DNA of 64,000 nt from an uncultured Planctomycetota bacterium (GCA_964370855.1 CAYJMF010000004.1:25258-89257), one strand, 5' to 3'. Shown: positions 4,481 through 60,559, counted from the first letter of the stretch. Numbers and translations are program-made. The notes: generated from the sequence alone by a model not told the origin.

Positions 4481-4520
4481 GTGACTTCTATTCGTGATGT
4501 ACATCACAGTTGGGTTGACA
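4481..4520. promoter_or_regulatory. ~40-bp promoter/operator element upstream of aprB: a palindrome followed by a TTGACA -35-like hexamer
   Basis: Sequence gtgacttctattcgtgatgtacatcacagttgggttgaca. It contains the perfect 14-bp palindrome GTGATGTACATCAC (4494-4507), i.e. GTGA-N6-TCAC. A near-identical element occurs at 60453-60490. Confidence 0.5.
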
Positions 4521-15304: not shown

Positions 15305-15309
15305 TCGAC

Positions 15310-34118: not shown

Positions 34119-34137
34119 CGGGTGCCGGACGCGGAGG

Positions 34138-34536: not shown

Positions 34537-34552
34537 GGAGTCCTCCCCCCCC

Positions 34553-40186: not shown

Positions 40187-40204
40187 CGTGATTTTTCTCA
40201 CAAT
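40187..40204. promoter_or_regulatory. conserved motif cGTGATTTTTCTCACAATt (GTGA-N6-TCAC) upstream of the RR/TauE/HK operon
   Basis: One of three copies of GTGATTT(T)CT(G/C)CACAAT in this window (also at 52044 and 59526). Confidence 0.45.
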
Positions 40205-40249
40205 TTCCTGACGGCCTTCCGTCGGCGGTGCTAGCATCGATGGTCGGCA

Positions 40250-40750
40250 GTGGTCCGGCCTCCAGCGGGTGCGGCATCCCATGCTCTTGCCGGTGTCGAG
40301 CCTTCGGTCCTCGACGGGATCGTGACGGACCCCGCCGTGCCCCCGGCCGCGCGCGTCCGCGTCCTTGTCATCGACGACGAGGCGGACTTCGCGACGGCGA
40401 CCGCCGAACGGCTGGTCCGCCGGGGCTTCCACGCGGTCCCCGTCTTCGACGGCCGCGCCGGCCTGGATCGGATCGCGGCCGGCCCCTTCGACGCGGTCCT
40501 GCTCGATCTCCGGATGCCGGGGATGGACGGTCTGGCGGTCCTCCGGGAGATCCGTCGCGTCGATCCCCACCTCCAGGTCGTGGTGCTGACCGGGCACGGA
40601 ACGGTGGCTTCCGGGATCGAGGGGATGCAGATCGGCGCCGCGGACTTCCTCCGGAAGCCCGCGGACTTCGATGGTCTGGTGACGGCGGTGCAGGCGGCCG
40701 CGGAGTCCACCCGCGCCCGCAGGGAGGCCGCCCGGGGAGGTGCCCGATGA
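40250..40750 (+). CDS. single-domain response regulator (CheY-like receiver)
   Basis: RVLVIDDEADF..LLDLRMPGMDG..DFLRKP. GTG start at 40250. True start uncertain. Confidence 0.75.
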   Translation: MVRPPAGAASHALAGVEPSVLDGIVTDPAVPPAARVRVLVIDDEADFATATAERLVRRGFHAVPVFDGRAGLDRIAAGPFDAVLLDLRMPGMDGLAVLREIRRVDPHLQVVVLTGHGTVASGIEGMQIGAADFLRKPADFDGLVTAVQAAAESTRARREAARGGAR

Positions 40751-41082
40751 GGAGGATCCCGTTCAGCGCCGTCCGCCGGAGGGCGCGCCGCTTCGCCCTT
40801 CCGCTCGCGGCGGCGGCGCTGGCGCTGGCGACGTGGTGCGCGGACGCCGCGGCCGCGGGGGGAGGAAAGCCCGCGTCGAAGCTCGTCAACGTCGCGGACA
40901 CGCGGTCCCTCGAGGCGGGCTTCTCGAGGTTCGTGGCGGACGTCTACAACGAGAGCTACTGGCTCTTCGCCCTCCTCGTGGTGGTCCTGATGGCGGGGCT
41001 CGGCCTCTTCCTGGGAATCGTGGCCGATCGCCTCTTCGCCCTCCTGGGGATCAACCTGGGGAGGATGTCGCACCACGAGTGA
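40747..41082 (+). CDS. small membrane protein (signal/TM), accessory to the TauE/SafE gene
   Basis: 112 aa. ATG overlaps the RR stop. Hydrophobic helix LFALLVVVLMAGLGLFLGIV. Confidence 0.45.
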   Translation: MRRIPFSAVRRRARRFALPLAAAALALATWCADAAAAGGGKPASKLVNVADTRSLEAGFSRFVADVYNESYWLFALLVVVLMAGLGLFLGIVADRLFALLGINLGRMSHHE

Positions 41083-41100
41083 CCGGGGGAGGCGGCGACC

Positions 41101-42147
41101 ATGGGATTCTTCGACATCTACCTGCCCATCGCGGGGCTGGAGTTCAACGTCCTCCTCCTCCTGCTCATCGGGTTCACGGTGGGGGTGTGCGGGGGGTTCT
41201 TCGGGATCGGCGGGGCCTGGATCGTCACCCCGGCGCTCAACATCTTCGGGTTCCCGATGCCCTACGCCATCGGGACCGACCTCGCCCACATGGGGGGCAA
41301 GTCCATCGTGTCCACGATGCGCCACGGGAAGTTCGGGAACGTGGACACCCGGCTGGGCGTGTCGATGATCCTGGGCACCACCCTGGGGATGGAGCTGGGG
41401 GCGAACCTCGTGCTGTACCTCGAGAGCATCGGCCTGGCGGAGACGCTGATCCGCAAGGCCTACATCGTGTTCCTGACCCTCATCGGCGGCTACGTGCTCT
41501 ACGACTACCTCACCCACACGATGCGCGCGCGACGGGCCGCGGCCGGGGGGCAACCGGTGCGGGAGGAGAACACCATCGCGCAGCGGCTCCAGAGGATCCG
41601 GATCCCGCCCATGGTCCATTTCAGGGCCTCCGGGGTCACCTGCTCGCTCTGGATCCCCGTCCTCGTCGGCCTGATGACCGGCGTCGTGGCGTCGGTCCTG
41701 GGGGTGGGAGGCGGGTTCATCCGCATGCCCGCGCTCGTCTACCTGATCGGGTGCCCCACGGTGGTGGCCGTGGGCACGGACCTCTTCGAGGTGATGATCA
41801 CCGGGGCCTACGGCGCGTTCACCTACGGACTCAAGGGCCGCGTGGACCTCGTCGCCGCGATGTGGATGCTGCTGGGCGCGGCCGTCGGGGCCCAGATGGG
41901 CACGGTCGCCGTGAAGTACGTGCGCGGCTACTCGATACGGCTGCTGTTCGCCATCACCATCTTCATCGCGTGCGCGTCGGTCCTGCTGAAGCAGCTCGAG
42001 ATGAACCTCCCCTCGGCGATCCTCATCCTCACCGCGGGCATCGTCATCAGCGGGGTGATCCTGGTGCTCCTCGTGAAGGGGATCGCGGCGGAACGGGCCG
42101 CCGCGAGGGGGACCGGCCGGGCCGGCGGGACGGGAGGCACGCCATGA
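41101..42147 (+). CDS. TauE/SafE (TSUP, DUF81) family permease, paralogue 3
   Basis: GIGGAWIVTP and GVGGGFIRMP motifs. 348 aa. Confidence 0.8.
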   Translation: MGFFDIYLPIAGLEFNVLLLLLIGFTVGVCGGFFGIGGAWIVTPALNIFGFPMPYAIGTDLAHMGGKSIVSTMRHGKFGNVDTRLGVSMILGTTLGMELGANLVLYLESIGLAETLIRKAYIVFLTLIGGYVLYDYLTHTMRARRAAAGGQPVREENTIAQRLQRIRIPPMVHFRASGVTCSLWIPVLVGLMTGVVASVLGVGGGFIRMPALVYLIGCPTVVAVGTDLFEVMITGAYGAFTYGLKGRVDLVAAMWMLLGAAVGAQMGTVAVKYVRGYSIRLLFAITIFIACASVLLKQLEMNLPSAILILTAGIVISGVILVLLVKGIAAERAAARGTGRAGGTGGTP

Positions 42148-42452
42148 GGAGGAAGGGGTGGACCCTCGCCGCGGCGGCGGTCGCGGCGCTCCTGCCGGGC
42201 TGCTGGCGGGGGCCCGCGGTCGTCCAGGGCACGGTCGTGAGCTTCGATCGGGAATCGAAGGTGGTGGTGGTCCTGGACGAGAGGGGCGGGGCCCGGTCCG
42301 CCTTCGACGTCTCGGGCGCGGAGATCGGGGCGGAGCCGGCCGAGGGGGACAGGGTGCGGCTGGCCTACAGGGAGGAGGAGGGGAAGCGGGTCGCCTCCCG
42401 GCTCATGAACCTCACCCGGCAGGCGGAGATCGGCAAGGGCTCCGGGCACTAG
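42144..42452 (+). CDS. small putative lipoprotein (LLPGC lipobox) coupled to the TauE/SafE gene
   Basis: 102 aa. ATG overlaps the TauE stop. Ends ..GKGSGH. Confidence 0.4.
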   Translation: MRRKGWTLAAAAVAALLPGCWRGPAVVQGTVVSFDRESKVVVVLDERGGARSAFDVSGAEIGAEPAEGDRVRLAYREEEGKRVASRLMNLTRQAEIGKGSGH

Positions 42453-42475
42453 CCCGGCGGACCGGGAGCGGACCC

Positions 42476-42880
42476 ATGGGCGGAGAGCCGGGCCGGGATC
42501 CCATCCGCGTCCTCCTCGTCGACGACGAGGAGACGTACCGCGAGACGCTGGCCAAGGTCCTCCGCCGCCGCGGCATGGACGTGACGACGGCCGGAAGCGG
42601 ATCCGACGCCGTCGAGCGGCTCCCCGGGGCCGTCCCCGAGGTCGTCGTCCTGGATCTCCGCATGCCGGGGCTCGACGGCCTGGACACGCTGAGGGAGATC
42701 CGGCGGCGGGAGCCCGCGGCGCGCGTCATCATCCTGACGGGCCACGGGACCCCGGAGGCGGGCCTCGCGGCGATCCGCGGGGAGGCCTGCGACTTCCTGC
42801 TCAAGCCCGTGGTCGTCGATCGCCTCGTGGAGGTCATCGAATCGGCGGCGGCCGAGGCCCGCCGATCGGGCGGCCGCTGA
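42476..42880 (+). CDS. single-domain response regulator (CheY-like receiver)
   Basis: RVLLVDDEE..VLDLRMPGLDG..DFLLKP. Confidence 0.8.
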   Translation: MGGEPGRDPIRVLLVDDEETYRETLAKVLRRRGMDVTTAGSGSDAVERLPGAVPEVVVLDLRMPGLDGLDTLREIRRREPAARVIILTGHGTPEAGLAAIRGEACDFLLKPVVVDRLVEVIESAAAEARRSGGR

Positions 42881-42884
42881 GGCC

Positions 42885-44549
42885 ATGGACCACCGGGACT
42901 ACGGCGCGCTGTTCCGGGGCACCGTCGGGAGGATGGTCCTCGTCTCGGTCGCCCCCATCCTCGCCGTGGGGGCGGTCGGCTTCCTCCAGTTCTCCCGGTA
43001 CAACCGCGCCATCGCCCTGGACCAGCACGCCGCCATCGTGCGCCAGCACCGCGAGTCCGTCGGGGCCTTCCTCGACGGACTGACCGCCCAGCTCACGACG
43101 CTCGCGCACCAGTACTCGCTCTCCGAACTCGCCGGGGGGGAGCTGGAGCGCGCGTTCCGCGTCATCCGGAGGAAGGAGGGGGTCTTCACGGACATCGGCG
43201 TCATCGACTCCCGGGGAGCCCACGTGAGGTACGTGGGGCCCTACGATCTCTCCTCCAGGAACTACCGGGAGACGGAGTGGTTCCGGCTGGTCGTGGAGAA
43301 GGGAGTGCACGTCAGCGACATGTTCCTGGGGTACCGGGGAGTGCCCCACTTCGTGATCGCGGTGCGGCGCGACGAGGGCCCGGACTTCTGGATACTCCGC
43401 GCGACGGTGGACACCGACTACTTCAGCCGGATGGTGGACGCCACCCGGGCGGGAAGGACCGGCGAGACGTTCATCGTCAACCCCGAGGGGCTGCTCCAGA
43501 CCGCGACCCTCCACGGGGGGAGGGTCCTGACCCCCTCCGGGCTCCCGGACATCGGGCCCCACGAGGGTGTCCGCGTCCGGGAAGTCGATTTCGACGGGCG
43601 GACCTTCACGTGCACCTCCACGTGGCTCGCCCGGCCGCGCTGGCTCCTGGTCTTCCGCCAGGAGAACACCGACCTGTACGCCCCTCTCCGGAGGGCCACG
43701 GCGTGGGGACTGGCGGCCGTGCTGGCCGGGGCCGCGGGGGGGGTGGGGCTGGCGGTCGTCGTGGCGCGGCGGCAGGTCGGGATGATCCGGAAGGCCGACG
43801 GGGAGAAGGAGGCGCTCGTGGGGAGGCTCCTCGTGGCGGGGAGGACCGCCGCCGTGGGCGAACTGTCCGCCGGGGTGGCCCACGGGATCAACAACCCGCT
43901 GGCGACCATCGACGTCCTGCGCACGTGGATCGCCGACATCGCCGGAGGAGGGCAGCCCGCCGGGTCGGACCGCGCCGAGATCCTGGAGTCGGCGGCCAGG
44001 ATCGGCGAGCAGGTGGCCCGCTGCAAGGCGATCACCGGGGGGCTGCTCTCCTTCTCGCGGCGCGTGGAGGCGAAGGCGGAGGCCGTCGATGTCGTCCCGC
44101 TCCTCCGGGAGCTGGCCGCCATGGCCTCGGCCAGGGCCGGGGTGGAGGGCGTCGCCCTCGTGCTGGAGCTGCAGCCGGCGCCTCCCGTCTTCGCCTCCTC
44201 CTCGCACCTCCAGCAGGTGTTCATGAACCTCGTGAACAACGCCATCGACGCCGCGGCCGGACGGCCCGGCGGGCGGGTCTCCCTCCGATCGGGGTCCGAG
44301 GCCGGAAGAGTGAGGATCGACGTCGTCGACAACGGGTGCGGGATCACCGGGGAGAACATGGCGAGGATCTTCGTGCCCTTCTTCACGACCAAGGCCGTGG
44401 GCAAGGGGACCGGGCTCGGGCTCGCCATCGCCCACGGCCTGGTCCGGAGCCTGGGGGGCGAGATCCGGGTGGAGAGCGAGGCGGGGGAGGGGGCGACCTT
44501 CACCGTGCTCCTCCCGCCGGCGGCGGGGTCCGCCGGCAGCCGCGCCTAG
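42885..44549 (+). CDS. sensor histidine kinase with extracytoplasmic Cache-like sensor domain
   Basis: Two TM segments flank a ~250-aa periplasmic region. H-box AGVAHGINNP. HATPase G-box. Paralogue of 47699..49345. Confidence 0.85.
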   Translation: MDHRDYGALFRGTVGRMVLVSVAPILAVGAVGFLQFSRYNRAIALDQHAAIVRQHRESVGAFLDGLTAQLTTLAHQYSLSELAGGELERAFRVIRRKEGVFTDIGVIDSRGAHVRYVGPYDLSSRNYRETEWFRLVVEKGVHVSDMFLGYRGVPHFVIAVRRDEGPDFWILRATVDTDYFSRMVDATRAGRTGETFIVNPEGLLQTATLHGGRVLTPSGLPDIGPHEGVRVREVDFDGRTFTCTSTWLARPRWLLVFRQENTDLYAPLRRATAWGLAAVLAGAAGGVGLAVVVARRQVGMIRKADGEKEALVGRLLVAGRTAAVGELSAGVAHGINNPLATIDVLRTWIADIAGGGQPAGSDRAEILESAARIGEQVARCKAITGGLLSFSRRVEAKAEAVDVVPLLRELAAMASARAGVEGVALVLELQPAPPVFASSSHLQQVFMNLVNNAIDAAAGRPGGRVSLRSGSEAGRVRIDVVDNGCGITGENMARIFVPFFTTKAVGKGTGLGLAIAHGLVRSLGGEIRVESEAGEGATFTVLLPPAAGSAGSRA

Positions 44550-44714
44550 AAGCGGTTTCACAGGCCCCCGCGGCCCCGCCGGGGGCGGCGGGGGGCCGTC
44601 TGCAGCGTCGGCCCTCCTCGCCTACCCTCCTGGGTATGTCTTCGTCGGGCCTCCTTGCATCCTGCCCCCCGGCGCCCCCGTCGCGACCACGGGGGCTTGT
44701 GAAACCGCTTCTAG
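44546..44714. repeat. 17-bp perfect inverted repeat (agaagcggtttcaca / tgtgaaaccgcttct) flanking a 132-bp GC-rich spacer between convergent genes
   Basis: ctagaagcggtttcacag at 44546-44563 and cttgtgaaaccgcttctag at 44696-44714. The inner GC hairpins may act as a bidirectional terminator. Confidence 0.5.
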
Positions 44715-47272
44715 AACCTCTCCATCTCCCCGGCCAGGAAGGCGCGGGCGAAGAAGCCGGGGCTGAGGTCGCTGTCCATCAGCATGTCGAGCTGCCGGGT
44801 GCAGAGGGTCAGGCGTCCGAGATCGGCCAGGCGCGGCAGGAGGTAGTCGCGGTCGTACTTCTCCAGCCCCGCGATCAGCAGGTCCCCGCGGGTGGCGACG
44901 GTGAACCCCCGGGCCTCGAGCACCCTGCGGACGAACTCGACCCGCCGCCTCCGGCGCGTCTCGTCGGCCGCACCGCCGTTGAAGCGGAAGTGGATGTAGT
45001 TCTTGTTGGTGCTCCTGCCGCAGTAGGCGTCCACGGTGGAGAAGTGCCACCCGGCCTTGGTGCTGAAGTTCATGTACCGGTCCGAGACGATGGCGAAGGA
45101 GGCGCGGCCGACCCCCAGGGACTCGTGCGGGGGGCCGGCCATCGACTCGCCCAGCACCGAGAGGAATCCGCTGGCCGAGACCGGCCGGGGCTGGGCCCGG
45201 CGCGCGCGGCGGTCGAGCAGGCCTTCCAGGAAGGCCCGCATCGGCGGGCTGGCCACCTCCTCCGTGGTGATCCTCCCGGACGCCCCGGCGCCTTCGACGA
45301 TCCCCCCGCCCACGTCGAAGACCCGCACCTCGATCGGCAGGTCCGCCTCCAGCGCCACCGAGTGCTCGCTGTCCGCCGCCGCGAGGTCCCCGAAGTGGAA
45401 CATCACCTCGTAGGCCTTCTCATGGACGTACCGCGCGAAGTCGTGCAGGGAGCGGCAGCCCCGGGGCGCGAACTCCGGCGCGGTGGGGTCCGTGAGGTTC
45501 AGCGGAACCACGAGGCGCGCGATGGGGCGCAGGGAGCGCAGCGCGGGGGAGTCCAGGAAGGGCGCCGGGCCGCGCTCCCGCGGCGGGCCGCCGGGCGCGG
45601 CGGGGAGGCCGGGGAGGGCCCCCCCGTGGACCGTGCGCCGCGTCGCGTCCACGGTGACCATCCCCCCGGGGGCGAGGGAGGTGGCGCCCTCCAGCCCCAC
45701 GATGGCGGGGACCCCGAACTCCCGGGCCAGGATCGCCATGTGGCCGGTGGGGGAACCCACGTCGGTCAGGATCGCGGCGCAGCGGCCCATCACCCTCGAG
45801 AAGAGCGGCGAGGAGTGCCGTGCGACCAGCACCCCGCCCTCCGGGAACCGGTCGAGGTCCTCCTCGGTCCGCACCAGGATCGCCGGCCCCGAGGCCGTAC
45901 CCGGGCAGGCCGACGCCCCGCCGGAGAGGAGCGCCGCGCCCTCCGGGGAGGGCCTTCCGGCGGATTCGGGAACCGGGCGCAGCGTCGCCATGGGGCGGGC
46001 CTGGAGGATCACGACGCGCCCGGACGGCTCGATGGCCCACTCCACGTCCTGGGGCGGGCCGAAGTGGGTCTCGATGGCGCGGCCCGCCGCGGCGAGCCGC
46101 AGGAGGTCCTCCGGGCCCGGGAGCCCGGACCGCGGGTCCCGGGAACCGTCCATGCGCCGTGCGGGGCCCCCGGGCGGAACCCGCCACAGGCAGGCGTCCT
46201 CGTCGCCCGAGGCCAGCCGATCCCCGCGTCCCTTCACGGCGCTGACCAGGACCTCGTCGCTCCCCGGATCCTCCGGGGGCCGCGAGAACAGGATCCCGCT
46301 CCACCGGGGCTCGATCATCCGCACGCACCCCACCGCCATCCTCCCCTCGTGGGCGGTCAGGCCCCTGTCGAAGCGGTAGGAGACCGGCCCCGGGGCGTAG
46401 GCGCTGGCGACCACGCGCCGGTATGCGTCCATGAGGCCCCCGCGATCCACGTCCAGCACCGTGAGGTACTGGCCCGCGTGGGAGGAGGCGCCGGAGTCCT
46501 CACCGACGGCGCTGCTCCGCACCGAGAACCTGGCCTCCGCCCCGCCCGCCATCCCGTCGACCGCCGCGAGGATCCCGTCGCGGATGTCCGGGGGCACGGG
46601 GGAGGCGAGGACGGCCTCCCGGACCTCGCGGCATGCCTCGGGCAGGGCCTCCGGCCCGTGGGCGTCCAGGATCCCTTCCAGCCTCTCGGCCCGGTCCCAC
46701 AGCTCGCCGTAGGTCATGAAGGTGGCGAAGGCGCTCACCGTGATCGCGAAGCCGTCCGGGACGGCGAGCCCGCAGGCCCTACCCACCTCGCCGAGGTTCG
46801 CCATCTTCACTCCCACGTTCTCGGCGTCCCGGGCACCCACCCCGGCGAGCCCGACGACGGGGGGGCCGACGAGGACGTCGGTCTGGCCCGCGAGCTCGTC
46901 CTCGATGGATGCGTTCAGGGACCGGAAGGCGTCGTAGAGGCCGGCGTGGGCCCCGCCGGAGATCTGGTCGAGGTCCTTCACCATCAGGAAGACGTCCATC
47001 GCGGCCTTGCGGACGCGCTGCCCGACGACCTCCATCGAGAAGGGGCGGCGGCCCGCGAGCCGGTCCTCGATGTCCACGATGAGCTCCAGGGTGGAGTCGT
47101 TGAGGACGAGGATCTCGCGGAACCTCTCGTACCGGAGGCGGAAGGCGGCGCTCCGCCGCGACCCGGTCCCCGAGACCCCCGCGCTCCGGCCGAAGGACCG
47201 CAGGGCCTCCCTGATCCGGGAGCCCAGCGTGCGGGGGGGCGGCGGCCGTCCGTCGGGAGGGGGCTGGAGCAT
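44711..47272 (-). CDS. PpsA-like PEP-utilising dikinase paralogue 3
   Basis: Motifs VGVKMANLGE, SVRSSAVGEDSG.SHAGQY, QDVEWA, GSPTGHMAILAREFGVPAIV. Confidence 0.8.
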   Translation of the reverse strand: MLQPPPDGRPPPPRTLGSRIREALRSFGRSAGVSGTGSRRSAAFRLRYERFREILVLNDSTLELIVDIEDRLAGRRPFSMEVVGQRVRKAAMDVFLMVKDLDQISGGAHAGLYDAFRSLNASIEDELAGQTDVLVGPPVVGLAGVGARDAENVGVKMANLGEVGRACGLAVPDGFAITVSAFATFMTYGELWDRAERLEGILDAHGPEALPEACREVREAVLASPVPPDIRDGILAAVDGMAGGAEARFSVRSSAVGEDSGASSHAGQYLTVLDVDRGGLMDAYRRVVASAYAPGPVSYRFDRGLTAHEGRMAVGCVRMIEPRWSGILFSRPPEDPGSDEVLVSAVKGRGDRLASGDEDACLWRVPPGGPARRMDGSRDPRSGLPGPEDLLRLAAAGRAIETHFGPPQDVEWAIEPSGRVVILQARPMATLRPVPESAGRPSPEGAALLSGGASACPGTASGPAILVRTEEDLDRFPEGGVLVARHSSPLFSRVMGRCAAILTDVGSPTGHMAILAREFGVPAIVGLEGATSLAPGGMVTVDATRRTVHGGALPGLPAAPGGPPRERGPAPFLDSPALRSLRPIARLVVPLNLTDPTAPEFAPRGCRSLHDFARYVHEKAYEVMFHFGDLAAADSEHSVALEADLPIEVRVFDVGGGIVEGAGASGRITTEEVASPPMRAFLEGLLDRRARRAQPRPVSASGFLSVLGESMAGPPHESLGVGRASFAIVSDRYMNFSTKAGWHFSTVDAYCGRSTNKNYIHFRFNGGAADETRRRRRVEFVRRVLEARGFTVATRGDLLIAGLEKYDRDYLLPRLADLGRLTLCTRQLDMLMDSDLSPGFFARAFLAGEMERF

Positions 47273-47287
47273 GGGGCTCGCCAGAGC

Positions 47288-47677
47288 CTACCGGGAGGAG
47301 GGCCGGGAGCGCCGGTTCGCGGCCGCTCGGCGGATGGTGCCGAGCAGCTCGTCCACCTGCACCGGCTTCAGGAGGTACTCGAAGGCGCCGAGTTCCATCC
47401 CCCGGACCCCCAGCTCCACGGAGGCGTGCCCGGTGAGGAGGATCACCTCGGTCTCCGGGAATCCGTTCCTCATGCGCCGCAGGAGGTCCAGGCCGTCCAT
47501 CCCCGGCATCTTCACGTCGACCACGGCGCAGTCGAAGTCGGTCCCGGAGAGCGCGGCGAGCGCCTCCACCCCGGACCGGGCCGTGGTGCAGTCCAACCCC
47601 CGCCTGCCCAGCAGGGTCGCCGTGGGCTCGAGGAACTCGACCTCGTCGTCCACCAGGAGCAGCTTCAGGTCCGCCAC
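47288..47677 (-). CDS. single-domain response regulator (CheY-like receiver)
   Basis: MADLKLLLVDDE..VVDVKMPGMDG..EYLLKP. 129 aa. Confidence 0.8.
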   Translation of the reverse strand: MADLKLLLVDDEVEFLEPTATLLGRRGLDCTTARSGVEALAALSGTDFDCAVVDVKMPGMDGLDLLRRMRNGFPETEVILLTGHASVELGVRGMELGAFEYLLKPVQVDELLGTIRRAAANRRSRPSSR

Positions 47678-47698
47678 TTCCCGCCTCCTCCCGCCCGG

Positions 47699-51884: not shown

Positions 51885-52043
51885 CCGGGCTCCGCAGGGC
51901 CGCCGCGCGACCCGCGCGGGGTGATCCGCGCGGGCCGCTCGCGGCGCCCGTCAACCGGCCGCTAGATCCCCGATCCTATTCGGTCCCGGGGACTTCCGCG
52001 GCTCCTTCCCCCCTGCCCCGGGCGACGGCCCGTGACCAGCAAT

Positions 52044-52061
52044 CGTGATTTTCTGCACAAT
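52044..52061. promoter_or_regulatory. conserved motif cGTGATTTTCTGCACAATa in the divergent intergenic region between the PEP-like operon and the CMPK-like/BON gene
   Basis: Second copy of the GTGATTT(T)CT(G/C)CACAAT motif. 424-bp intergenic region. Confidence 0.45.
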
Positions 52062-52308
52062 ATCGAAGGACCCTGTTCCGGCCCCCTGCTAGGATCCCGG
52101 GCGAGATCGAGACCGGTCCGGCGACGTTCGGACGATGTGCACCATGTCCTGGTCCTTCGCGAGCCGCCCTTCCGCGCCGCGTGCGCGTCCCGCGCGCCGG
52201 CCTCCCCCTCCCGGCGATCTCCGGCCCCGCCCCCGGGAGCGGGCTCCTTCGAGGCGGGTCGCGCCCGTGCCCCCGGGGGCGGCGGGCGCGGGAAGGGGGT
52301 GAGTTCCC

Positions 52309-53142
52309 GTGGCCATCATCACGATTTCAAGGGGTTCGATGAGCGGGGGGGAGGCGCTGGCGACCCTGCTGGCCCGGGACCTGGGCTGCCCCGTCCTCGG
52401 CCGCGAGGTCGTGCTCGAGGCGGCCGCCGCGATCGGGGTCCCCGAGGAGACCCTCGGGCAGAAGTTCGAGCGGAGCCCGGGGCTCTGGGGGCGGCTGACC
52501 TCGGACCGGCGCGTCTACGTCGTCGCGGTCCAGGCGGCGCTGGCCGAGCACGCGGCCACGGGCCGTCTCGTCTACCACGGGCTCGCGGGGCACCTCCTGC
52601 TCAAGGGCGTCCCGGCGGTCCTCCGGGCACGGCTCATCGCGCCGCTGGAGATGCGCGTCCGCACCGTCATGGAGCGCCAGGGCCTGGGGCGGAGCGCCGC
52701 GGTGGAGTACATCGAGAACGTCGACGAGGACCGCGTCCGCTGGACCAGGTTCATCTACGGCGTCGACTGGCGGGACCCGGCCCACTACGACCTCGTCGTG
52801 AACCTCGAGAACATCTCCATCCCCGCCGCCGGCGAGATCATCGCGCGGGCCGCCTCCCGGGTCGAGTACGCGATCACGCCGCCGGTCCTGAAGGCGCTCG
52901 CCGACTTCCGCCTGGCCTGCCGGGTGAAGGTGGCCCTGGCCGTGAACCCCCAGACGCGGGGAATCGACCTCAAGGTGCGGGCCGACGGGGGCGCCCTGAC
53001 GGTCGAGGGCGACCTGCCCGCCGCCGGGATGCTCACCCGCGCCAGCCGAAGGGACGAGGAGGAGGTCCTGCGCACCGCCCGGGAGGTGCCCGGCGTGGTC
53101 GACGTGGCGCTGGACCTCAGGCGGTACGACCCGTCCCTCTGA
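52309..53142 (+). CDS. cytidylate-kinase-like P-loop protein with C-terminal BON-like domain (paralogue of 29184..29999)
   Basis: GTG start. MAIITISRGSMSGGE.. ~45% identical to the other copy. Confidence 0.6.
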   Translation: MAIITISRGSMSGGEALATLLARDLGCPVLGREVVLEAAAAIGVPEETLGQKFERSPGLWGRLTSDRRVYVVAVQAALAEHAATGRLVYHGLAGHLLLKGVPAVLRARLIAPLEMRVRTVMERQGLGRSAAVEYIENVDEDRVRWTRFIYGVDWRDPAHYDLVVNLENISIPAAGEIIARAASRVEYAITPPVLKALADFRLACRVKVALAVNPQTRGIDLKVRADGGALTVEGDLPAAGMLTRASRRDEEEVLRTAREVPGVVDVALDLRRYDPSL

Positions 53143-53167
53143 ACTCGACCTTCCCGAAAGAGGACCC

Positions 53168-53356
53168 GTGAACTGGATCACCTGGCTTCACGAACTGGGG
53201 CGGGACGCGAACGCCGGGGCGCCGGGGTTCCAGGCGGGCGCTTCGTACCTCCTGGTCTCCGTGTCGATGCCCGTGGCCATCGGCCTGTTCGTGGGATTCG
53301 GCTTCCGCCTCGTGGAGGCCGTCTTCGGGATCCGGCTCGGGAAGGGGGGGCACTGA
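53168..53356 (+). CDS. small hydrophobic protein (62 aa) coupled to the TauE/SafE gene
   Basis: The TGA overlaps the ATG of the downstream TauE gene. One TM helix. Ends ..GKGGH. Confidence 0.35.
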   Translation: MNWITWLHELGRDANAGAPGFQAGASYLLVSVSMPVAIGLFVGFGFRLVEAVFGIRLGKGGH

Positions 53357-54273
53357 TGTCGGCCGGCGACTTCCTCCTGGACCTCGGGCACTTCCCCTGG
53401 CTCATCCTCTTCGGCCTCGTCATCGGCGTCATCGGGGGGTTCTTCGGCGTGGGCGGGGGCTTCCTGATGGTCCCGATGCTGAACGTCGTCTTCGGGATCC
53501 CCTACAACATCTGCGTCGGGTCGGATCTCGGCCAGATGTGCGGGATGTCCACGGCGGCCACCGTGCGCCACATGCGCTTCGGCAACATCGACTTCAAGCT
53601 GGGGTTCCTGATGATCGTGGGGACCGCGACCGGGGTGGAGCTGGGCGCGATCCTCCTCGAGCTCCTGAAGCGGGCGGGGGAGACCACGATGACGGTGGTC
53701 ATGAGCCTGATCTACGCCGCCCTCCTGCTCTTCCTCGGTCAGGCCATCGTCCGCGAGTCCCTGCGGACGATCAAGGCGGGGGGCGGGGAGGGCGACGGGG
53801 GCGGGGGCGTGCCTCCGGCGTCGGGAGTCATGCTCCGGCTCCGCACGCTGAAGCTCCGGCCCATGGTGAGCCTGCCCGCTTCCGGGATCGCCTCCGTCTC
53901 GCTGTGGGTGATCCTGGGCATCGGGTTCGCCACGGGGGTCCTGTCGGGGATGCTCGGCGTGGGCGGCGGCTTCATTCGGATGCCCGCCCTCGTCTACATC
54001 CTGGGCTGTCCCACGGTGGTGGCCGTGGGGACCGACCTCTTCGAGATCATGTTCAGCTCCGGGTACGGCGTCTTCTCCCACTCCATGAAGGGGAACGTCC
54101 ACCTGGTCCTGGTCCTGGCGCTCCTGATCGGGACGACGATCGGAGCCCAGATCGGGGCCTCCTACACCCGGAAGGCGGGGGGGCCGCGCGTCCGGCTGGG
54201 CTTCGGCTGCCTGGCCTTCGTGGGGGTCCTGATGGTCGCCGTCAAGCTCTGCCTCAAGCTGACGGGGCATTGA
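53356..54273 (+). CDS. TauE/SafE (TSUP, DUF81) family permease, paralogue 4
   Basis: FGVGGGFLMVP and GVGGGFIRMP motifs. 305 aa. Confidence 0.8.
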   Translation: MSAGDFLLDLGHFPWLILFGLVIGVIGGFFGVGGGFLMVPMLNVVFGIPYNICVGSDLGQMCGMSTAATVRHMRFGNIDFKLGFLMIVGTATGVELGAILLELLKRAGETTMTVVMSLIYAALLLFLGQAIVRESLRTIKAGGGEGDGGGGVPPASGVMLRLRTLKLRPMVSLPASGIASVSLWVILGIGFATGVLSGMLGVGGGFIRMPALVYILGCPTVVAVGTDLFEIMFSSGYGVFSHSMKGNVHLVLVLALLIGTTIGAQIGASYTRKAGGPRVRLGFGCLAFVGVLMVAVKLCLKLTGH

Positions 54274-54307
54274 GGCCGGGCCGTCGGCGGTTGCTAGGAT
54301 CGCCCTG

Positions 54308-56917
54308 ATGTCCGGGCTCTACGACCGCCTCGCGCGAATCCTCTCCGGCGGCGCCGGGCGCCGCCGGAGAGTCCCGGTCGGCGAGAAGTTCCGCCGGTTC
54401 CGGGCCATCGGATCCTCCAACGACGCGTTCCTCCACCTCCTTGCCGACCTCCAGGATCGGGAGGAGGATCCCGCCGCGGAGGCGTGCGCCTCCGCGGACT
54501 CCGCCCTGGAGGAGATGGGGCGCCACGTGCACTCGATGGCGGAGGCCCTCGTCGCGCTGTCCGGAGGCCGCCACGCGGAGGTGCTGCGGCGCTGCGGGGA
54601 GATCGATCGGAACCTGCGGACGGAACTGCACGGGGCCCCGCCCGGCGACACCGGGGCGGTCATCGTGTGGCCGGGGGATCCGGACGCCCTGCGGCCCCGG
54701 GTCGTGGGCCCGAAGGCGGCGCGGCTGGCGGAGGCGACGTCGATCCCGGGCCTCGAGGTTCCGCCGTTCTTCTCCGTCTCCGCCCGGGGGTACCGCCTCT
54801 TCATGGAGGGGTCGGGCCTCGGGGAGGTCGTGGACGGCGTCCTGTCCTCCTCCGGGTCCCCGGAGCCCGGTGCGGTGAAGGCGGCCTCGGAGGCGATCGG
54901 TGCGGCCTTCGCGCGTGCCGTGGTCCCGGAGGAGATCGAGGCGGGGCTGCAGTCCGCGGTCCGCACCCTCCTCGACAGGGGCCGGTGGGAGCCCGGGGTC
55001 GCCGTCCGGTCCAGCGCCGTGGTGGAGGGATCCGCCTCCTCCTTCGCCGGCCAGTTCGAGAGCGTGCTCAACGTCCGCGGCCCGGACCTGGCGGAGGCGT
55101 ACAAGAGGGTGGTCGCCAGCAAGTACCGGCATCACGCCCTCCGGTACGCGCTCTCGCGCGGATTCCGCGAGAAGGACGTGGCGATGCCCGTCCTGGTCAT
55201 GGCGATGGTGCGCCCCTCCTCCAGCGGGGTCGCCTACTCCCGCTGTCCCGGGCGGCCGCAGTCGGTCATGATCACGGCGGTCCCGGGCCTGGCCCAGGCG
55301 GTCGTCGACGGGAGGGTGACCCCGGACACCTTCCTGGTCTCGATCCGGGACCCGGACCTGGTGGAGGAGTTCCTCCCCGGCCGACGGGGTTTCTCGCTGC
55401 GGTGCGCCGCCGACGGGGGGCTCATCGAGGTCGGGGAGCGGGTCGCGCCCGCAGGCGCCCCCGCCCTGCCCGCGGACGGGGTCCGCGAGGTGGCCCGCAT
55501 GGCGTGCAGCCTCGAGAAGCACTTCGGGTCCCCCCAGGACGTCGAGTGGGCCCGGAACGAGGCCGGGAGGGTCCTGGTGGTCCAGACGAGGCCGCTGCAC
55601 CTTCCCAGGGTGGACGCGCGGCCCCAGCCCTCCCGGCCGCCCGTGGAAGGGCACCGCGTCCTCCTGGCGGGGGGGCGGCGCGCCTCCGGAGGCGTCGCCT
55701 CGGGCCCCCTGTTCCACCTCCGCGATCCGATGCACGTCGACGCGGTCCCGGAGGGGGCGATCCTCCGCGTCCCGATGACGACGCCGCGGCTGGCGGGGGT
55801 GATGGGACTGGCGGGCGGGATCATCGCCGCCGCGGGCAGCCCCGTCGGGCACATGTCGACCATCGCCCGGGAGTTCGGGGTGCCTTGCGTGATCGGTGCG
55901 GCGGACTCCCTGGCCTCCCTGCCGCAGGGCGCGATCGTCACCCTGGACGCCGACGCCGGCATCGTCTACGAGGGCGCCGTCCCCGGCCCGCCGGGCCCCG
56001 GGCCCCATGCCCGGCCCGCCGGGAGGAGCCGGGATCCCGCCGGGGAGGACCTGGACCTCCTCCTCCAGCAGGTCTCCCCGCTGACCCTTCCCGAGCCGGG
56101 GACCCCCGGTTTCCTCCCGGAGAACTGCCGGACCTTCCACGACATCGCGAGGTACGTCCACCAGGCGGCGATGGCGGAGATGTTCGAGCTGGAGGACTCC
56201 GCGGCGGGGGAGATGCGCTCGGCCCGGCGCCTCGCCTGGGGGGTGCCCCTGCAGGTCCTCCTGGTCGACCTGGGCGGAGGGGCGGAGGCCGGCGATCCCT
56301 CGGTCGTCACGGTCGCGGAACTTCGTTCCGTGCCGCTTCTCGCCGTCATCGAGGGAATGTCGGACCCGCGCCTGCACTGGACCGGCCCCGTCGGGTTCGA
56401 TCTCAAGGGGTTCATGTCCGTCGTCGTGCACAGCGCCGCCGACGACCAGCGGTACGGGGAGCCCTGCTACTGTCTCTGCTCCCCGGACTACATGCACTTC
56501 GCTTCGCGGCTCGCCTACCACTTCGCCACCGTGGACTCGATCTGCGGCGGCTCCGTCAACGAGAACTACGCCCGCTTCCTCTTCCACGGGGGGGCGGCCG
56601 TGGCGGCCCGGCGCGAGTGGCGCGCCCACTTCCTCGCCGTGATCCTCGAATCCCACGGCTTCGCCGTCAGGCAGGCGGGCGATCGGGTCGAGGCCGTCCT
56701 GGCGAAGAGGGGGGCGGACCGGGTGGTGGAGGCGCTCGGGATGCTGGGGAGGCTGATGGTCGCCTCCCGCCACCTGGACATGGTGATCGAGAGCCGGTCC
56801 ACCGCGGACGTCCTGGCCCGGGCCTTCCTCTCGGGGGACTACTCCTTCCGGCGGCTCGCCGGCCACGGCCCCCGGGACGGCACGGGGGCCGCGCCTCCTA
56901 GTGCATCTCCCACTTGA
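54308..56917 (+). CDS. PpsA-like PEP-utilising dikinase paralogue 5
   Basis: Motifs VGPKAARLAE, AVRSSAVVEGSASSFAGQF, QDVEWA, GSPVGHMSTIAREFGVPCVIG. Same C-terminal domain as the other four. Confidence 0.8.
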   Translation: MSGLYDRLARILSGGAGRRRRVPVGEKFRRFRAIGSSNDAFLHLLADLQDREEDPAAEACASADSALEEMGRHVHSMAEALVALSGGRHAEVLRRCGEIDRNLRTELHGAPPGDTGAVIVWPGDPDALRPRVVGPKAARLAEATSIPGLEVPPFFSVSARGYRLFMEGSGLGEVVDGVLSSSGSPEPGAVKAASEAIGAAFARAVVPEEIEAGLQSAVRTLLDRGRWEPGVAVRSSAVVEGSASSFAGQFESVLNVRGPDLAEAYKRVVASKYRHHALRYALSRGFREKDVAMPVLVMAMVRPSSSGVAYSRCPGRPQSVMITAVPGLAQAVVDGRVTPDTFLVSIRDPDLVEEFLPGRRGFSLRCAADGGLIEVGERVAPAGAPALPADGVREVARMACSLEKHFGSPQDVEWARNEAGRVLVVQTRPLHLPRVDARPQPSRPPVEGHRVLLAGGRRASGGVASGPLFHLRDPMHVDAVPEGAILRVPMTTPRLAGVMGLAGGIIAAAGSPVGHMSTIAREFGVPCVIGAADSLASLPQGAIVTLDADAGIVYEGAVPGPPGPGPHARPAGRSRDPAGEDLDLLLQQVSPLTLPEPGTPGFLPENCRTFHDIARYVHQAAMAEMFELEDSAAGEMRSARRLAWGVPLQVLLVDLGGGAEAGDPSVVTVAELRSVPLLAVIEGMSDPRLHWTGPVGFDLKGFMSVVVHSAADDQRYGEPCYCLCSPDYMHFASRLAYHFATVDSICGGSVNENYARFLFHGGAAVAARREWRAHFLAVILESHGFAVRQAGDRVEAVLAKRGADRVVEALGMLGRLMVASRHLDMVIESRSTADVLARAFLSGDYSFRRLAGHGPRDGTGAAPPSASPT

Positions 56918-58508
56918 TGAACGGCTCCTTCACGTCCACCATCGCGTTCACGATCAGCTCGACGAGCCCGCCGTAGGTGATCCCGCTCTTCTCCAGGGCG
57001 CCGTAGCGCTGGAGGATGTCCCGGAGCTGGCCCTTGCAGTTGGAGCAGGGGGCGCAGAGGTACTTCTTCACCTCGGGGCCCGGATGGTCGGCGAAGGCGT
57101 CCAGGACCTGCTTGAACTTCACCCGTCCCGCGACGGCCGTGCGCCAGTCGGTGAAGTTGTTGCCGGACATCACCGCGAACCCGCTCCCGCCGCCGCAGCA
57201 GTAGTTGTCCACACCGTGGGGCGTCATCTCCCGGAACTGCGGGCAGAGGTGGCGGAGGATCCGGCGCTGGGGCTCCACGATGCCCAGGTTCCGGACGATG
57301 TTGCACGGGTCGTGGAGTGTGACCGGGAAGTCGTTCTTCGAGGGGTCGAACTTGATCTTCCCGCTGAAGACGATCCTCTCGAGGAGCGGCAGGCAGCTCT
57401 CGCGGCGGATCGACATCTCCCCCGTCAGGACCCGGTCGGCGACGGTGATCAGCGCCTTGTGCTCGTGGCCGCACTCGCCGGCGACGATCCTCTTCACCTT
57501 CAGTTTGCCGGCCGCCTGGGCGTGCTTCAACGCGACCCTGGCGAGCTGGAAGTCGTCGTAGAAGAGCCCGTAGTTGACGCCGTCGTAGCCGACCTGCTCC
57601 GAGGAGAGCGTCCAGTCCACGCCCGCGGCGTTGAGGATGATGGCGAAGGCCCCGGGGTTCTCGGGCCAGGCGAGGATCTCGCCCGCGTTGTGGAGCAGGA
57701 GGACGTCCGCCCCCTCCTTGTCCCAGGGGGTCGTCGCGTCGAGCCCCGTGAGGTCCTTCGTGTCCTCGTCGATGAAGTCGACGTTGTCCTTCACGACCTC
57801 GGGGTTCATACCCGTGGAGGAGCCGACCCCGAGCTGGAGGACCGTCCCCTTCTCGTGCAGCTCCTTCGGGGCCCATCCGAGCTCCTGGCTGAAGAGCTTC
57901 CTCAGCTCGTGGGCGATGAGCCCGTTGTCCACCCCGATGGGGCAGACCTGCGCGCAGCGGCGGCAGAGGTTGCAGCGGTAGGCCAGTTCGTAGAGGCGGG
58001 AGATCGTGGTCCAGTTGAGGTCCACGTCGGCGCCCGTGAGGAAGGACGCCGCCCTCCCCCCGGGCCTGGCGTACCTCCTCACGAGTCGGCGCAGGGCCTC
58101 GGACCTGTAGGTGGGCCTGTAGATCTCCATCCCGCCGGAGCCCTTGAAGACGTGGCAGGAATCGCTGCACGTCTGGCACCCGACGCAGTACTCCAGCGAG
58201 AGGGTGAGGGGCTGGAGGAAGGTCCAGTTGTTCTCCCTCTCCAGGAGCTTCTTCAGGCCGGAGGCGAACCGGTCCACGAGCTCCTTCTCCTCGGCCGGGT
58301 CCCGCGGGTGGGGGAGGCTCAGGGCGACGACCCCGTCGAGGTTGCAGACGAACCGCTTCCGGGCCTCGGGGGAGATCTCCTTCCACGGAGGTTCCGCGTC
58401 CGGCTCGTCGTAGGGAGGCGGCAGGGGGATCAGCATCCCCGTGTCCACGGGCGACAGGACCTCGTCCCCGTCCTCCCCGATGCCGCGCACGCCCCTGATG
58501 GCCTTCAT
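56898..58508 (-). CDS. DsrK/HdrD-like CCG-domain iron-sulfur protein (second DsrMK-like module)
   Basis: Internal start MKAIRG (ATG 58508-58506). Motifs CxxCxxCxxxCP, LHDPCN, YCCGGGSG. Confidence 0.8.
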   Translation of the reverse strand: MKAIRGVRGIGEDGDEVLSPVDTGMLIPLPPPYDEPDAEPPWKEISPEARKRFVCNLDGVVALSLPHPRDPAEEKELVDRFASGLKKLLERENNWTFLQPLTLSLEYCVGCQTCSDSCHVFKGSGGMEIYRPTYRSEALRRLVRRYARPGGRAASFLTGADVDLNWTTISRLYELAYRCNLCRRCAQVCPIGVDNGLIAHELRKLFSQELGWAPKELHEKGTVLQLGVGSSTGMNPEVVKDNVDFIDEDTKDLTGLDATTPWDKEGADVLLLHNAGEILAWPENPGAFAIILNAAGVDWTLSSEQVGYDGVNYGLFYDDFQLARVALKHAQAAGKLKVKRIVAGECGHEHKALITVADRVLTGEMSIRRESCLPLLERIVFSGKIKFDPSKNDFPVTLHDPCNIVRNLGIVEPQRRILRHLCPQFREMTPHGVDNYCCGGGSGFAVMSGNNFTDWRTAVAGRVKFKQVLDAFADHPGPEVKKYLCAPCSNCKGQLRDILQRYGALEKSGITYGGLVELIVNAMVDVKEPFIKWEMH

Positions 58509-59418
58509 TCGCCGCCTCCCTTCGAGGCGATGTCCACCCACGTCTTCCTGCCGTCGGCTCCCAGGTGCGGCGCCGCCCAGGTGGGTGACTGGCGGAGCAT
58601 CGTCCCGAGTTCCCTCTCCATGGGGCTTCCGGCCGCGAGGGGGCGGTCCTCCCACCGGACCTGGTGATAGGTGAAGTACTTGGCGACGAAGTGCATCATC
58701 TGGCTGAAGGGGAGGTAGGCCAGGAACACGAGGGCCACCACGAAGTGGAGGGCGAGGCCCCCGGGGACGGCCGCGGGGGGCCGGGCGGCGAGGAGGGCTC
58801 CCGCGAACGCGAGGACGTCGCCGGGGAAGTCCCCCGCGGAGAGGATGGCGGCTCCCCCCGTCGCGAAGAGCGCGGACAGGAGGAGGAGGTTCAGGAGGGC
58901 GACGGGCGTGGTGATCAACCTGAGCTTCGGATCCAGGAGGCGGCTCGCGAGGAGGCCGAGGGCGCCGAAGGCCCCCAGCCCGTAGGCCGTCCCCGCCAGG
59001 AGGGGGAACCCCGTCGCCATCACTCCCCATCCCGGGCCCTCCACGCCCGCGACGGCGGCGGCGCCCCGGAGGAGCGCCAGGCCGGCGGCGGCGGCCAGGA
59101 GGTACAGGCCCAGGTGGAAGGGGAAGGAGAACCACCAGAGCCGCCGGTTGTGCTCCCACAGGGCCTTGAGGAAGAGGACCTCCCTCAGCATGTAGGCCAG
59201 CTCCGCGGCATGGGACTCCTTCCGCGGCGCCTTCCACCACTCGTACTCCTCGAGGTAGGAGCCCCCGTACCGCCCGCGGCCCTTCTCCTTCGGGACCGGG
59301 GCGAGCTCCCACCGCAGGTGCACGGGCATCCTCCAGATCCGCAGGCACCGGAGGACGAAGGCGACGGCGAAGACGGCGACGGAGCCGTAGGACAGAGCCA
59401 GCAGCGTCGAGCCCGCCA
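58505..59418 (-). CDS. DsrM/NarI-like membrane cytochrome b (second DsrMK-like module)
   Basis: Polytopic. The LPFSQMMH motif is like DsrM's LPFSKLLH. The start is uncertain: an internal ATG at ~59418 or TTG at 59524. Confidence 0.65.
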
Positions 59419-59525
59419 TGGGGGCGCCCCTCTCGACGGCGAGGATCTCCGCGCTCCGGGAGTCGCCGGCTCGCGGAGCGGAGGTTTCCTCGGAGGCCCG
59501 GGGCCGCTTCCGGTCCGCGGGCAAC

Positions 59526-59545
59526 TGTGCAAGAAATCACAGTAT
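59526..59545. promoter_or_regulatory. conserved motif ctGTGCAAGAAATCACAg (GTGC-N6-TCAC) between the divergent dsrM-like and rex genes
   Basis: Third copy, as reverse complement, of the GTGATTT(T)CT(G/C)CACA motif. Candidate Rex autoregulatory operator. Confidence 0.45.
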
Positions 59546-59630
59546 AGGGAGCGAAGGGGGCGGGTGGATCGTGCGATCGGGAGCGTGGTCACAGGCGGGT
59601 CCGGGGACGCGGGCGGCCCTTCCGTGTGTC

Positions 59631-59659
59631 TTGACACGCTTCCCCCGGGCCGATAGCCT
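59631..59659 (+). promoter_or_regulatory. putative sigma70-type promoter for rex (TTGACA-17 bp-TAGCCT)
   Basis: TTGACA at 59631-59636, 17-bp spacer, TAGCCT at 59654-59659. Confidence 0.3.
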
Positions 59660-59666
59660 CCTCCTC

Positions 59667-60455: not shown

Positions 60456-60490
60456 CTCCTATTCGTGACAAACATCACGAATAAGTTGAC
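60453..60490. promoter_or_regulatory. second copy of the ~40-bp aprB-type promoter/operator element (perfect 24-bp palindrome TATTCGTGA-caaaca-TCACGAATA followed by GTTGAC), upstream of hemA
   Basis: gtgactcctattcgtgacaaacatcacgaataagttgac aligns base-for-base with 4481-4520. Confidence 0.5.
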
Positions 60491-60559
60491 TCCCGCCCCG
60501 GACCGCCGTATCCTCGTGCTTTCAGGGGGAATTCGTCCGGCAGGGTGGAGTCTCGCGAG

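Follow-up and report, generated by a model that had tools for sequence, protein, structure and literature searches.

Predicted Rex operators connect sulfur-metabolism genes and a gene island in an uncultured Planctomycetota bacterium

A 64,000-nucleotide (nt) stretch of DNA from an uncultured Planctomycetota bacterium (GCA_964370855.1, CAYJMF010000004.1:25258-89257), hereafter called the window, carries three copies of a short inverted repeat, which we call S1, S2 and S3. The first two lie upstream of operons in a gene island that follows a cluster of dissimilatory sulfur-metabolism genes, and the third lies beside rex. On the evidence given below, S1, S2 and S3 are probably three of at least five predicted operators of the Rex repressor encoded in the window. 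A first-pass annotation had proposed both that the repeats are Rex operators and that they place the island within the redox regulon of the sulfur genes. Each proposal is supported in silico: by a weight matrix derived from foreign sites, by a conservation footprint at S3, by three Gemmatimonadales loci in which rex stands next to a homologue of an island gene, and by control loci that lack rex. That the island belongs to a Rex regulon is, in our view, a well-supported in silico prediction.

Five related sites in intergenic DNA

The three repeats first noticed are all found in the window sequence, at 40188, 52045 and 59526-59540 (minus strand), although the coordinates originally given for S3 were off by 1-3 nt. 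Its full sequence is ctGTGCAAGAAATCACAg (59525-59542), of which the reverse complement is GTGATTTCTTGCAC. Exact matches to GTGATTTNNNNCACA occur three times in the window, one each in S1, S2 and S3 with 0 mismatches, versus 0.07 expected from 100 dinucleotide shuffles, of which none equalled the observed count. The repeats are less alike than had been claimed. Rather than 16-18 of 19 shared positions, ungapped pairwise identity among the three is 14-15 of 19. Specifically, S1 matches the pattern GTGA-N6-TCAC exactly, and S2 and S3 match it with one mismatch each.

The gene context first described for each repeat is borne out by Pfam and NCBIfam assignments. S1 is positioned 32 nt past the stop codon of TauE2 and 5′ of an operon of receiver, TauE, receiver and histidine-kinase genes (RR1-orf-TauE3-RR2-HK2, 40340-44549). 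S2 resides inside a 424-nt divergent spacer, between the minus-strand PEP-utilizer-type gene PEP4 (start 51884) and the plus-strand cytidylate-kinase-like gene CMPK2 (start 52309). S3 separates rex (plus strand) from a dsrM-like gene (minus strand) and lies upstream of both, at a distance of 108 nt from the dsrM-like ATG (59419) and approximately 237 nt from the rex start.

The original count of three proves incomplete. When the whole window is searched for GTGA-N6-TCAC with at most one mismatch, two further sites of this class appear, upstream of aprB and of hemA (Table 1), both of which are intergenic and have A/T-rich spacers. The hemA operator, located 10 nt past the end of rex and ahead of hemA (ATG 60560), is embedded in a palindrome with 8-bp arms, ATTCGTGA-N6-TCACGAAT. 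The spacers differ among sites (TTTTTC, TTTCTG, TGTACA, CAAACA), and the invariant positions are those of the palindromic half-sites.

These five sites are also the ones selected by a matrix that owes nothing to the window. The matrix comprises 20 columns and derives from 91 sites at the rex loci of 34 other genomes. It ranks S1 first (in the A-rich orientation), followed by the hemA site, S2, the aprB site and S3. The sixth-best match in the window reaches 12.9 bits, leaving a gap of 7.6 bits below the fifth. All five sites score at least 20 bits, and all fall in intergenic DNA, which amounts to about 5.0 kb or 8% of the window. In 300 simulations of a Markov-1 null of this intergenic DNA, the number of matches at or above 20 bits was 0. 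Three of the top five sites picked by the foreign matrix are S1, S2 and S3, in support of the Rex-operator reading.

Could the likeness of the sites have arisen with no dedicated regulator at all? S1 and S2 might resemble each other because their promoters are duplicated paralogues or because they share an A/T-rich element, with S3 matching by chance. The island does consist of paralogous operons (five PEP-utilizer-type genes, five TauE genes and several receiver and histidine-kinase genes), and TGCTAGNAT recurs 44-45 nt downstream of both S1 and S2. Yet the flanks of S1 and S2 do not align beyond the site and the -10 element. Moreover, the half-sites stay invariant while the spacer varies, an externally derived matrix finds the sites, S3 is conserved across eight genomes, and the chance expectation is at most 0.07. 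We consider this explanation highly improbable and already close to refutation. Rfam models at gathering thresholds report nothing in the window, and thus no known RNA element explains the motif.

Table 1. Operators, promoter-like elements and genes of the window discussed in the text
Feature	Position	Strand	Sequence and remarks
S1 operator core	40188..40201	+	GTGATTTTTCTCAC, within cGTGATTTTTCTCACAATt; GTGA-N6-TCAC search; matrix 27.8 bits
S2 operator core	52045..52058	+	GTGATTTTCTGCAC, within cGTGATTTTCTGCACAATa; matrix 24.0 bits
S3 operator core	59527..59540	.	GTGCAAGAAATCAC (plus), GTGATTTCTTGCAC (minus); matrix 20.5 bits
aprB operator	4494..4507	+	GTGATGTACATCAC (attcGTGATGTACATCACagtt at 4494); upstream of aprB (ATG 4792); matrix 23.0 bits
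hemA operator	60465..60478	+	GTGACAAACATCAC (attcGTGACAAACATCACgaat at 60465); matrix 26.6 bits
Putative S1 promoter	40208..40237	+	CTGACG (40208-13), 18-nt spacer, TGcTAGCAT (-10 at 40232-37); -10 starts 44 nt after S1 start, as at hemA; manual reading, below scan threshold
Extended -10-like element, predicted CMPK2-TauE4-PEP5 promoter	52087..52095	+	TGcTAGGAT; 45 nt after S2 start; no good -35
-10-like element at S3	59541..59546	-	TATACT; immediately upstream of S3 GTGA
Putative aprB promoter	4515-20 and 4537-42	+	TTGACA (4515-20), 16-nt spacer, TACTCT (4537-42); manual reading, below scan threshold
hemA promoter-like element	60486..60514	+	TTGACT, 17-nt spacer, TATCCT; consensus scan, 9/12 matches
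dsrM-like/dsrK-like operon	56898..59419	-	dsrM-like 58505-59419, dsrK-like 56898-58520
rex	59778..60455	+	likely start GTG 59778; Pfam Put_DNA-bind_N and CoA_binding

Three of the operators are preceded by an additional GTGAC, located 13 nt upstream (start to start), at 4481..4485 for aprB, 52032-52036 for S2 and 60452-60456 for hemA, in the last case overlapping the rex stop codon. The equivalent place at S1 reads TCGAC. The composite pattern GTGAC-N8-GTGA-N7-CAC matches the window three times versus 0.18 expected, and it was found in no locus fetched from other organisms. The extra GTGAC may represent a third half-site.

Several weaker candidates were rejected as extra sites. GTGATCATGATGAC at 34292 scores 6.2 bits and falls inside the coding sequence of a minus-strand receiver gene. 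GTGAACTGGATCAC at 53168 reaches only 7.4 bits, the candidate at 47433 is coding, and TATTCGTGAT at 4720 is a half-site only. The receiver-domain gene (MARLSILVLDDEP...; 34119-34545, minus strand) is an unlisted gene that occupies what seems to be an intergenic gap between PEP1 and PEP2. The half-site TATTCGTGAT (4720-4729) equals the left half of the aprB and hemA operators and stands 72 nt upstream of the aprB ATG without a right half-site. It looks like a decayed operator, and a full site is present close upstream of aprB in three related loci (L012, L021 and L024). Two public contigs from ENA metagenomes (ERZ13693047 NODE_244 and ERZ13692942 NODE_398) match the window at 100% and 99.99% identity, and they yield no micro-footprint from strain variation.

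The Rex protein and its sites in other genomes

Judged by its sequence, the protein encoded by rex is a genuine Rex. It scores 196 bits against NCBIfam model NF003994 (cutoff 130) and also passes NF003995 and NF003996 at their curated cutoffs, two of these three models being equivalog models and one a subfamily model. Full-length matches to solved Rex chains in PDB have E values from 8e-34 to 2e-24. Alignments to 3wg9 and 3ikv reveal SQIRRDF at the QIR(K/R)D recognition helix, GTGNLG for GxGxxG, and FDSDP for FDxDP. The start at 59778 is indicated by G+C content at third codon positions, which rises there from 0.75-0.81 to 0.90-0.94, and by the Rex proteins of relatives, which start at the aligned MARLKR. 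We rejected the longer frames that open at 59571 or 59667, since the stretch ahead of 59778 has a flat profile of codon-position G+C. In the public annotation, rex spans 294 amino acids, and its first ~69 codons (59571-59777) show this flat G+C profile and are absent from relatives. This N-terminal extension is probably spurious.

A search with the Rex protein, limited to one genome per species, returned 80 loci, of which the nearest 34 (L001-L034) encode Rex proteins with 49-63% identity to that of the window. These 34 loci come from metagenome-assembled genomes (MAGs) labelled Gemmatimonadota, Planctomycetota and Thermodesulfobacteriota. In them, rex neighbours aprBA-qmoABC-sat, or cobA-hemD, or a divergent dsrM-like/dsrK-like pair, and in four (L001-L003 and L009) it sits among homologues of island genes encoding cytidylate-kinase-like, TauE, HAMP kinase, PEP-utilizer and receiver proteins. 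One locus (L023, 3104-4459) carries two tandem rex copies, with 52% and 50% identity to the window Rex, ahead of aprBA.

Sites of the form GTGA-N6-TC(A/T)C flank rex, aprB and the divergent dsrM-like gene across the 34 loci. In the relatives the motif has the consensus aAaCGTGAaAAAAATCTCRcaaG and is found both ahead of rex and in the gap that separates rex from the following gene. Its right half-site is TCTC rather than TCAC, and the operator is therefore conserved in an asymmetric form. Matches of at least 17 bits gave 93 site-to-gene assignments under a rule that counts sites within 600 nt of a gene, with a few sites falling outside: 46 upstream of aprB, 33 of rex, 7 of dsrM2, 6 of CMPK2 and 1 of qmoA. 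In five relatives, the matrix also matches CCCGTGAAGTACATCACGAA (17-22 bits) inside the 3′ end of aprA (L006 at 8903, L021 at 13496, L024 at 13534, L030 at 13331 and L034 at 4396). This match could reflect conservation of the coding sequence or an internal site ahead of qmoA, and it has no counterpart in the window.

A conservation footprint is seen at S3. When the spacer between the dsrM-like gene and rex is aligned for the window and seven relatives, the invariant columns A..GTG.......TCAC coincide exactly with S3. The S3 half-sites are the only invariant non-coding block of this eight-genome alignment, in which the start of the dsrM-like gene is invariant as well. In more distant Rex clades (Phycisphaerae, Sedimentisphaerales and Pirellulales), aaaTGTGAAAAAAATCACAAaa is found approximately 165 nt upstream of rex. 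This sequence equals the published Rex consensus TTGTGAANNNNTTCACAA (PMC6391272) and has the same A-rich centre, and thus the window sites grade into classical Rex boxes.

A link to the island is seen in the three Gemmatimonadales MAG loci (L001-L003), where the gene after rex encodes a cytidylate-kinase-like protein (VAIITISRGSLSGG...) homologous to the product of the gene downstream of S2. There, the kinase-like gene is preceded by TTGACA-17-TAGACT, with a site 5 nt on and a second site 68 nt further. As a control, a metagenome search with the window's kinase-like protein encoded beside S2 yielded 80 loci (L081-L160) totalling about 0.5 Mb. No rex gene is present in any of these loci, and the matrix finds only three matches of at least 16 bits in the ~0.5 Mb, none of which is upstream of a kinase-like gene. 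Because kinase-like loci that lack rex also lack the motif, the motif goes with rex and not with the island gene families as such. The same 80 loci provide no orthologous-promoter footprint for S2.

These patterns bear on the identity of the binding protein. A regulator of the CRP/FNR family (HcpR-like), encoded elsewhere and responding to nitric oxide, cyclic AMP or another ligand, might bind the sites and might even activate transcription. We keep this alternative because HcpR1-type proteins share the core. The HcpR1 site is TGTGA-N6-TCACA, HcpR1 also touches the sat promoter, and a CRP/FNR-type protein would recognise the same sequence (PMC5701242), such that sequence alone cannot separate Rex sites from CRP-type sites. 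A fixed position near -50 with constant phasing, described below, is likewise more typical of activators than of repressors. The window has five sites that match TGTGA-N6-TCACA at 1-2 mismatches; the relaxed pattern occurs nine times versus 6.9 expected, and it is not enriched. Despite these considerations, no CRP/FNR-family gene is present among the Pfam-scanned open reading frames of the window. By contrast, in MAGs labelled as belonging to several phyla, no regulator but rex is found with the motif every time. The sites flank rex itself, and loci of the same gene families without rex are without the motif. Most relatives' promoters also combine a near-consensus TTGAC-17-TAAAAT with a second site over the transcribed start, which is the layout of a repressor. 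A CRP/FNR-type regulator is therefore unlikely, and Rex remains the preferred candidate.

The Rex clade linked to apr and dsr genes has a feature of its own. Immediately after the DNA-binding wing, where the next helix begins, its members carry the motif C-E-(V/I/A)-C, represented in the window by VGYDMCEVCRAIR. The CxxC is found in 28 of the 34 clade members and its second cysteine in all 34, and it is absent from the distant Rex clades and the solved Rex proteins that were compared. It could serve as a thiol, persulfide or metal switch. The window Rex also has histidine in place of an arginine that is nearly invariant in the wing of this clade.

Promoter layout and mode of control

Four of the five predicted operators share a fixed geometry. 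At aprB, hemA, S1 and S2, a -10-like hexamer (TACTCT, TATCCT, TAGCAT and TAGGAT, respectively) begins 43-45 nt after the start of the site. At three of these four, a -35-like hexamer (TTGACA, TTGACT and CTGACG) follows the site by 6-7 nt. The operators are centred near -50, with 6-7 nt between them and the -35 position. This operator-to-promoter spacing is fixed in the window and is the same in relatives, where 19 of 78 strong sites stand exactly 8 nt before TTGAC. Sites in relatives are usually paired, 66-69 nt apart from centre to centre, and the second is located downstream of the -10 element, most often by 13-19 nt. A typical arrangement (L004, L007, L008, L014, L023, L030, L033 and others) reads site, 8 nt, TTGAC, 17 nt, TAAAAT, ~17 nt, site. 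Up to five sites occur between rex and aprB in relatives, with spacings of 31-32 and 67-68 bp.

S3 is arranged differently. A minus-strand TATACT directly precedes its GTGA, and thus a protein bound to S3 would sit over the point where transcription of the dsrM-like gene begins. The same layout recurs on this side of the spacer in L001-L003, as TTGAGG-18-TAGCTT-4 nt-GTGA. The dsrM-like/dsrK-like operon is likely a direct target of S3. From the layouts of the five promoters, transcripts are predicted to begin near 4549, 40244, 52102 and 60521 on the plus strand and near 59534 on the minus strand.

Control of rex by its own product is a separate matter. The first-pass annotation had placed a copy of the motif at the promoter of rex, an arrangement that is evident in relatives, where paired sites are found approximately 136 and 68 nt upstream of rex, but not clear in the window. 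Here, the best candidate for the rex promoter is TTGACA (59631-36), a 17-nt spacer and TAGCCT (59654-59). S3 lies some 90 nt upstream of this candidate and faces the dsrM-like promoter. A weak palindrome, GTGTGTCTTGACAC (59624-59637; 3.7 bits), overlaps the candidate -35 hexamer. Autoregulation of rex in this genome is the weakest link of the proposed regulon.

The observations themselves comprise the sites, their statistics, their conservation beside rex in other genomes and the identity of the Rex protein. We infer that Rex is the protein that would bind the sites, that it would act by repression, and that NADH would be its signal; the assigned promoter positions are predictions of the same kind. 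When the ratio of NADH to NAD+ is low, a Rex dimer would occupy the inverted repeat (T/C)GTGA-N6-TCAC(A/G). A rise in NADH would release Rex, such that five transcription units would be derepressed together: aprBA (possibly with qmo and sat), the dsrM-like/dsrK-like operon, hemA, RR1-TauE3-RR2-HK2, and CMPK2-TauE4-PEP5. Classical Rex repression relieved by NADH is the most likely mode, and it fits the control by Rex of sulfate-reduction genes in Desulfovibrio (PMC7531388, PMC4045070). A different mode at the four promoters with sites near -50 is a possibility.

One such mode would have Rex function as an activator or co-activator at these four promoters, where it would sit next to the -35 element and contact RNA polymerase, with S3 alone mediating repression. 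The constant 43-45 nt between site and -10-like hexamer, preserved in relatives, would suit an activator, as would the lack of a recognisable -35 element at S2 and of a downstream partner operator in the window. Good -35 hexamers are nevertheless present at three of the four promoters, which argues that an activator is not needed. Furthermore, the characterised Rex proteins cited here are all repressors (PMC6391272, PMC7531388, PMC4045070), and relatives pair the upstream site with one over the transcript start. We judge activation by Rex to be quite unlikely and continue to favour repression.

Several observations weigh against a regulon governed by Rex acting as a repressor. With their centres near -50, four of the sites are not where a repressor would classically occlude a promoter, and a partner operator like those paired in relatives is found nowhere within 120 nt on either side of the window sites, where the best match scores 3.7 bits. 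In the window, the matrix scan detects no strong site at the promoter of rex. Of the promoters proposed here, the consensus scan recovered that of hemA alone, the others being below its threshold. Agreement with the published consensus TTGTGAANNNNTTCACAA is limited to 10-11 of its 14 specified positions at each of the five sites. The core GTGA-N6-TCAC is also that of CRP and HcpR, and the check for such regulators covered 64 kb of the genome. Finally, scanning the relatives with the matrix is circular for those loci, such that the independent tests are the window and the 80 metagenome loci.

Relation to known regulons and to the gene island

Operators of this kind are already known. The novelty lies in the lineage, in the targets (hemA, two operons of the island and a second dsrMK-type operon) and in details of how the operators read and where they are placed. 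The window sites resemble the Rex operator (ROP) sites of Streptomyces, Thermus, Bacillus and Clostridia in their GTGA-N6-TCAC spacing, in their A/T-rich centre, and in their location at energy-metabolism promoters and beside rex (PMC6391272). As in those systems, the cognate protein of the window combines a winged helix with an NAD(H)-binding Rossmann domain, and Rex is known to autoregulate in C. bescii (PMC6391272). Unlike ROP sites, the half-site in the window is mostly CGTGA rather than TGTGA, and the right half in other members of the clade is TCTC. Four of the five window operators lie upstream of the -35 element near -50 instead of over the core promoter, three have the extra GTGAC 13 nt upstream, and the Rex clade itself carries the CxxC after the wing.

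The closest functional parallel is provided by Desulfovibrio. In D. vulgaris, Rex represses sat (PMC7531388), and the Rex regulon of D. alaskensis G20 includes qmoABCD, sat, adk, ppaC and, by prediction, apsAB, dsrABD and dsrMKJOP (PMC4045070). Dissimilatory sulfate-reduction genes are targets there as here, where aprB and the dsrMK-like operon carry sites. In contrast to that regulon, the window has no site of at least 13 bits before sat, qmoA, dsrAB, dsrC or the first dsrMK(OP) set. Its predicted regulon instead adds hemA and two operons that encode TauE transporters, receiver and kinase proteins, a cytidylate-kinase-like protein and a PEP-utilizer-type protein. The organism likewise differs, being an uncultured lineage with a G+C content of 72% in the window, whose nearest Rex relatives, at 62% identity or less, are from Gemmatimonadota and Planctomycetota MAGs. 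With HcpR1 and CRP sites, the window operators share an identical core and spacing; unlike those systems, no such regulator was found among the window's open reading frames, and the motif travels with rex rather than with a CRP/FNR gene.

The adjacency of rex and hemA in the window recalls the rex-hemACD operon of S. coelicolor, which was reportedly described by Brekasis and Paget in 2003.

The sulfur cluster of the window, as assigned by Pfam and NCBIfam, contains aprBA, qmoABC, sat, dsrC, a DsrT-like gene, dsrMK-like genes, dsrOP, dsrAB, a dsrL/gltD-like gene, dsrN and cobA-hemD. The DsrT-like gene encodes a protein with an RsbRD_N domain and lies between dsrC and the first dsrMK-like gene (15058-15855, plus strand). 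The island of approximately 28 kb that follows encodes five PPDK_N/PEP-utilizer proteins, five TauE transporters, two cytidylate-kinase-like proteins (one with a BON domain), histidine kinases and single-domain receivers. Beyond the island, the window continues with a second, minus-strand dsrM-like/dsrK-like pair, which is followed by rex, hemA and a TPR gene. The dsrM-like protein has a Pfam Nitrate_red_gam match, and its relatives align from residue 1 of the 59419 start. The dsrK-like protein scores 331 bits against the NCBIfam DsrK model, which is under the curated cutoff of 400.

Genes of the island family recur well beyond this window. In metagenome contigs ranging from 32 to 71% G+C, cytidylate-kinase-like (PF13189) genes are often found beside sat, aprBA, dsrN, dsrMK-like, TauE, PEP-utilizer-type and receiver/kinase genes. 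Because this neighbourhood recurs in unrelated contigs, the island appears to be a widespread accessory module of dissimilatory sulfur clusters.

The window Rex belongs to a distinct clade that travels with apr/qmo/sat, dsrMK-like, sirohaem and island genes in the MAGs described above. The predicted operator of this clade is asymmetric, CGTGA-A-rich-TCTC, and typically occurs as a pair, 66-69 bp apart, on either side of a consensus promoter. A broader hypothesis, which we offer as doubtful, is that such a Rex might combine the sensing of NADH with a signal that sulfur metabolism provides through a thiol, a persulfide or a metal. The island would then be an accessory module of dissimilatory sulfur metabolism, conserved and under Rex control.

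The matrix itself could be used to map regulons in the many MAGs that encode this Rex clade. If Rex binds the predicted operators in this uncultured sulfur-metabolising lineage of high G+C content, they would provide a testable link from the balance of NADH and NAD+ to adenosine 5′-phosphosulfate reductase, to tetrapyrrole synthesis and to a second DsrMK-type membrane complex. Binding would also offer the first functional handle on a recurrent but uncharacterised set of genes that encode TauE-type transporters, cytidylate-kinase-like/BON proteins, PEP-utilizer/rifampicin-phosphotransferase-like proteins and receiver/kinase pairs. Co-regulation of these genes with aprBA and dsrMK would then argue that the island takes part in dissimilatory sulfur metabolism.

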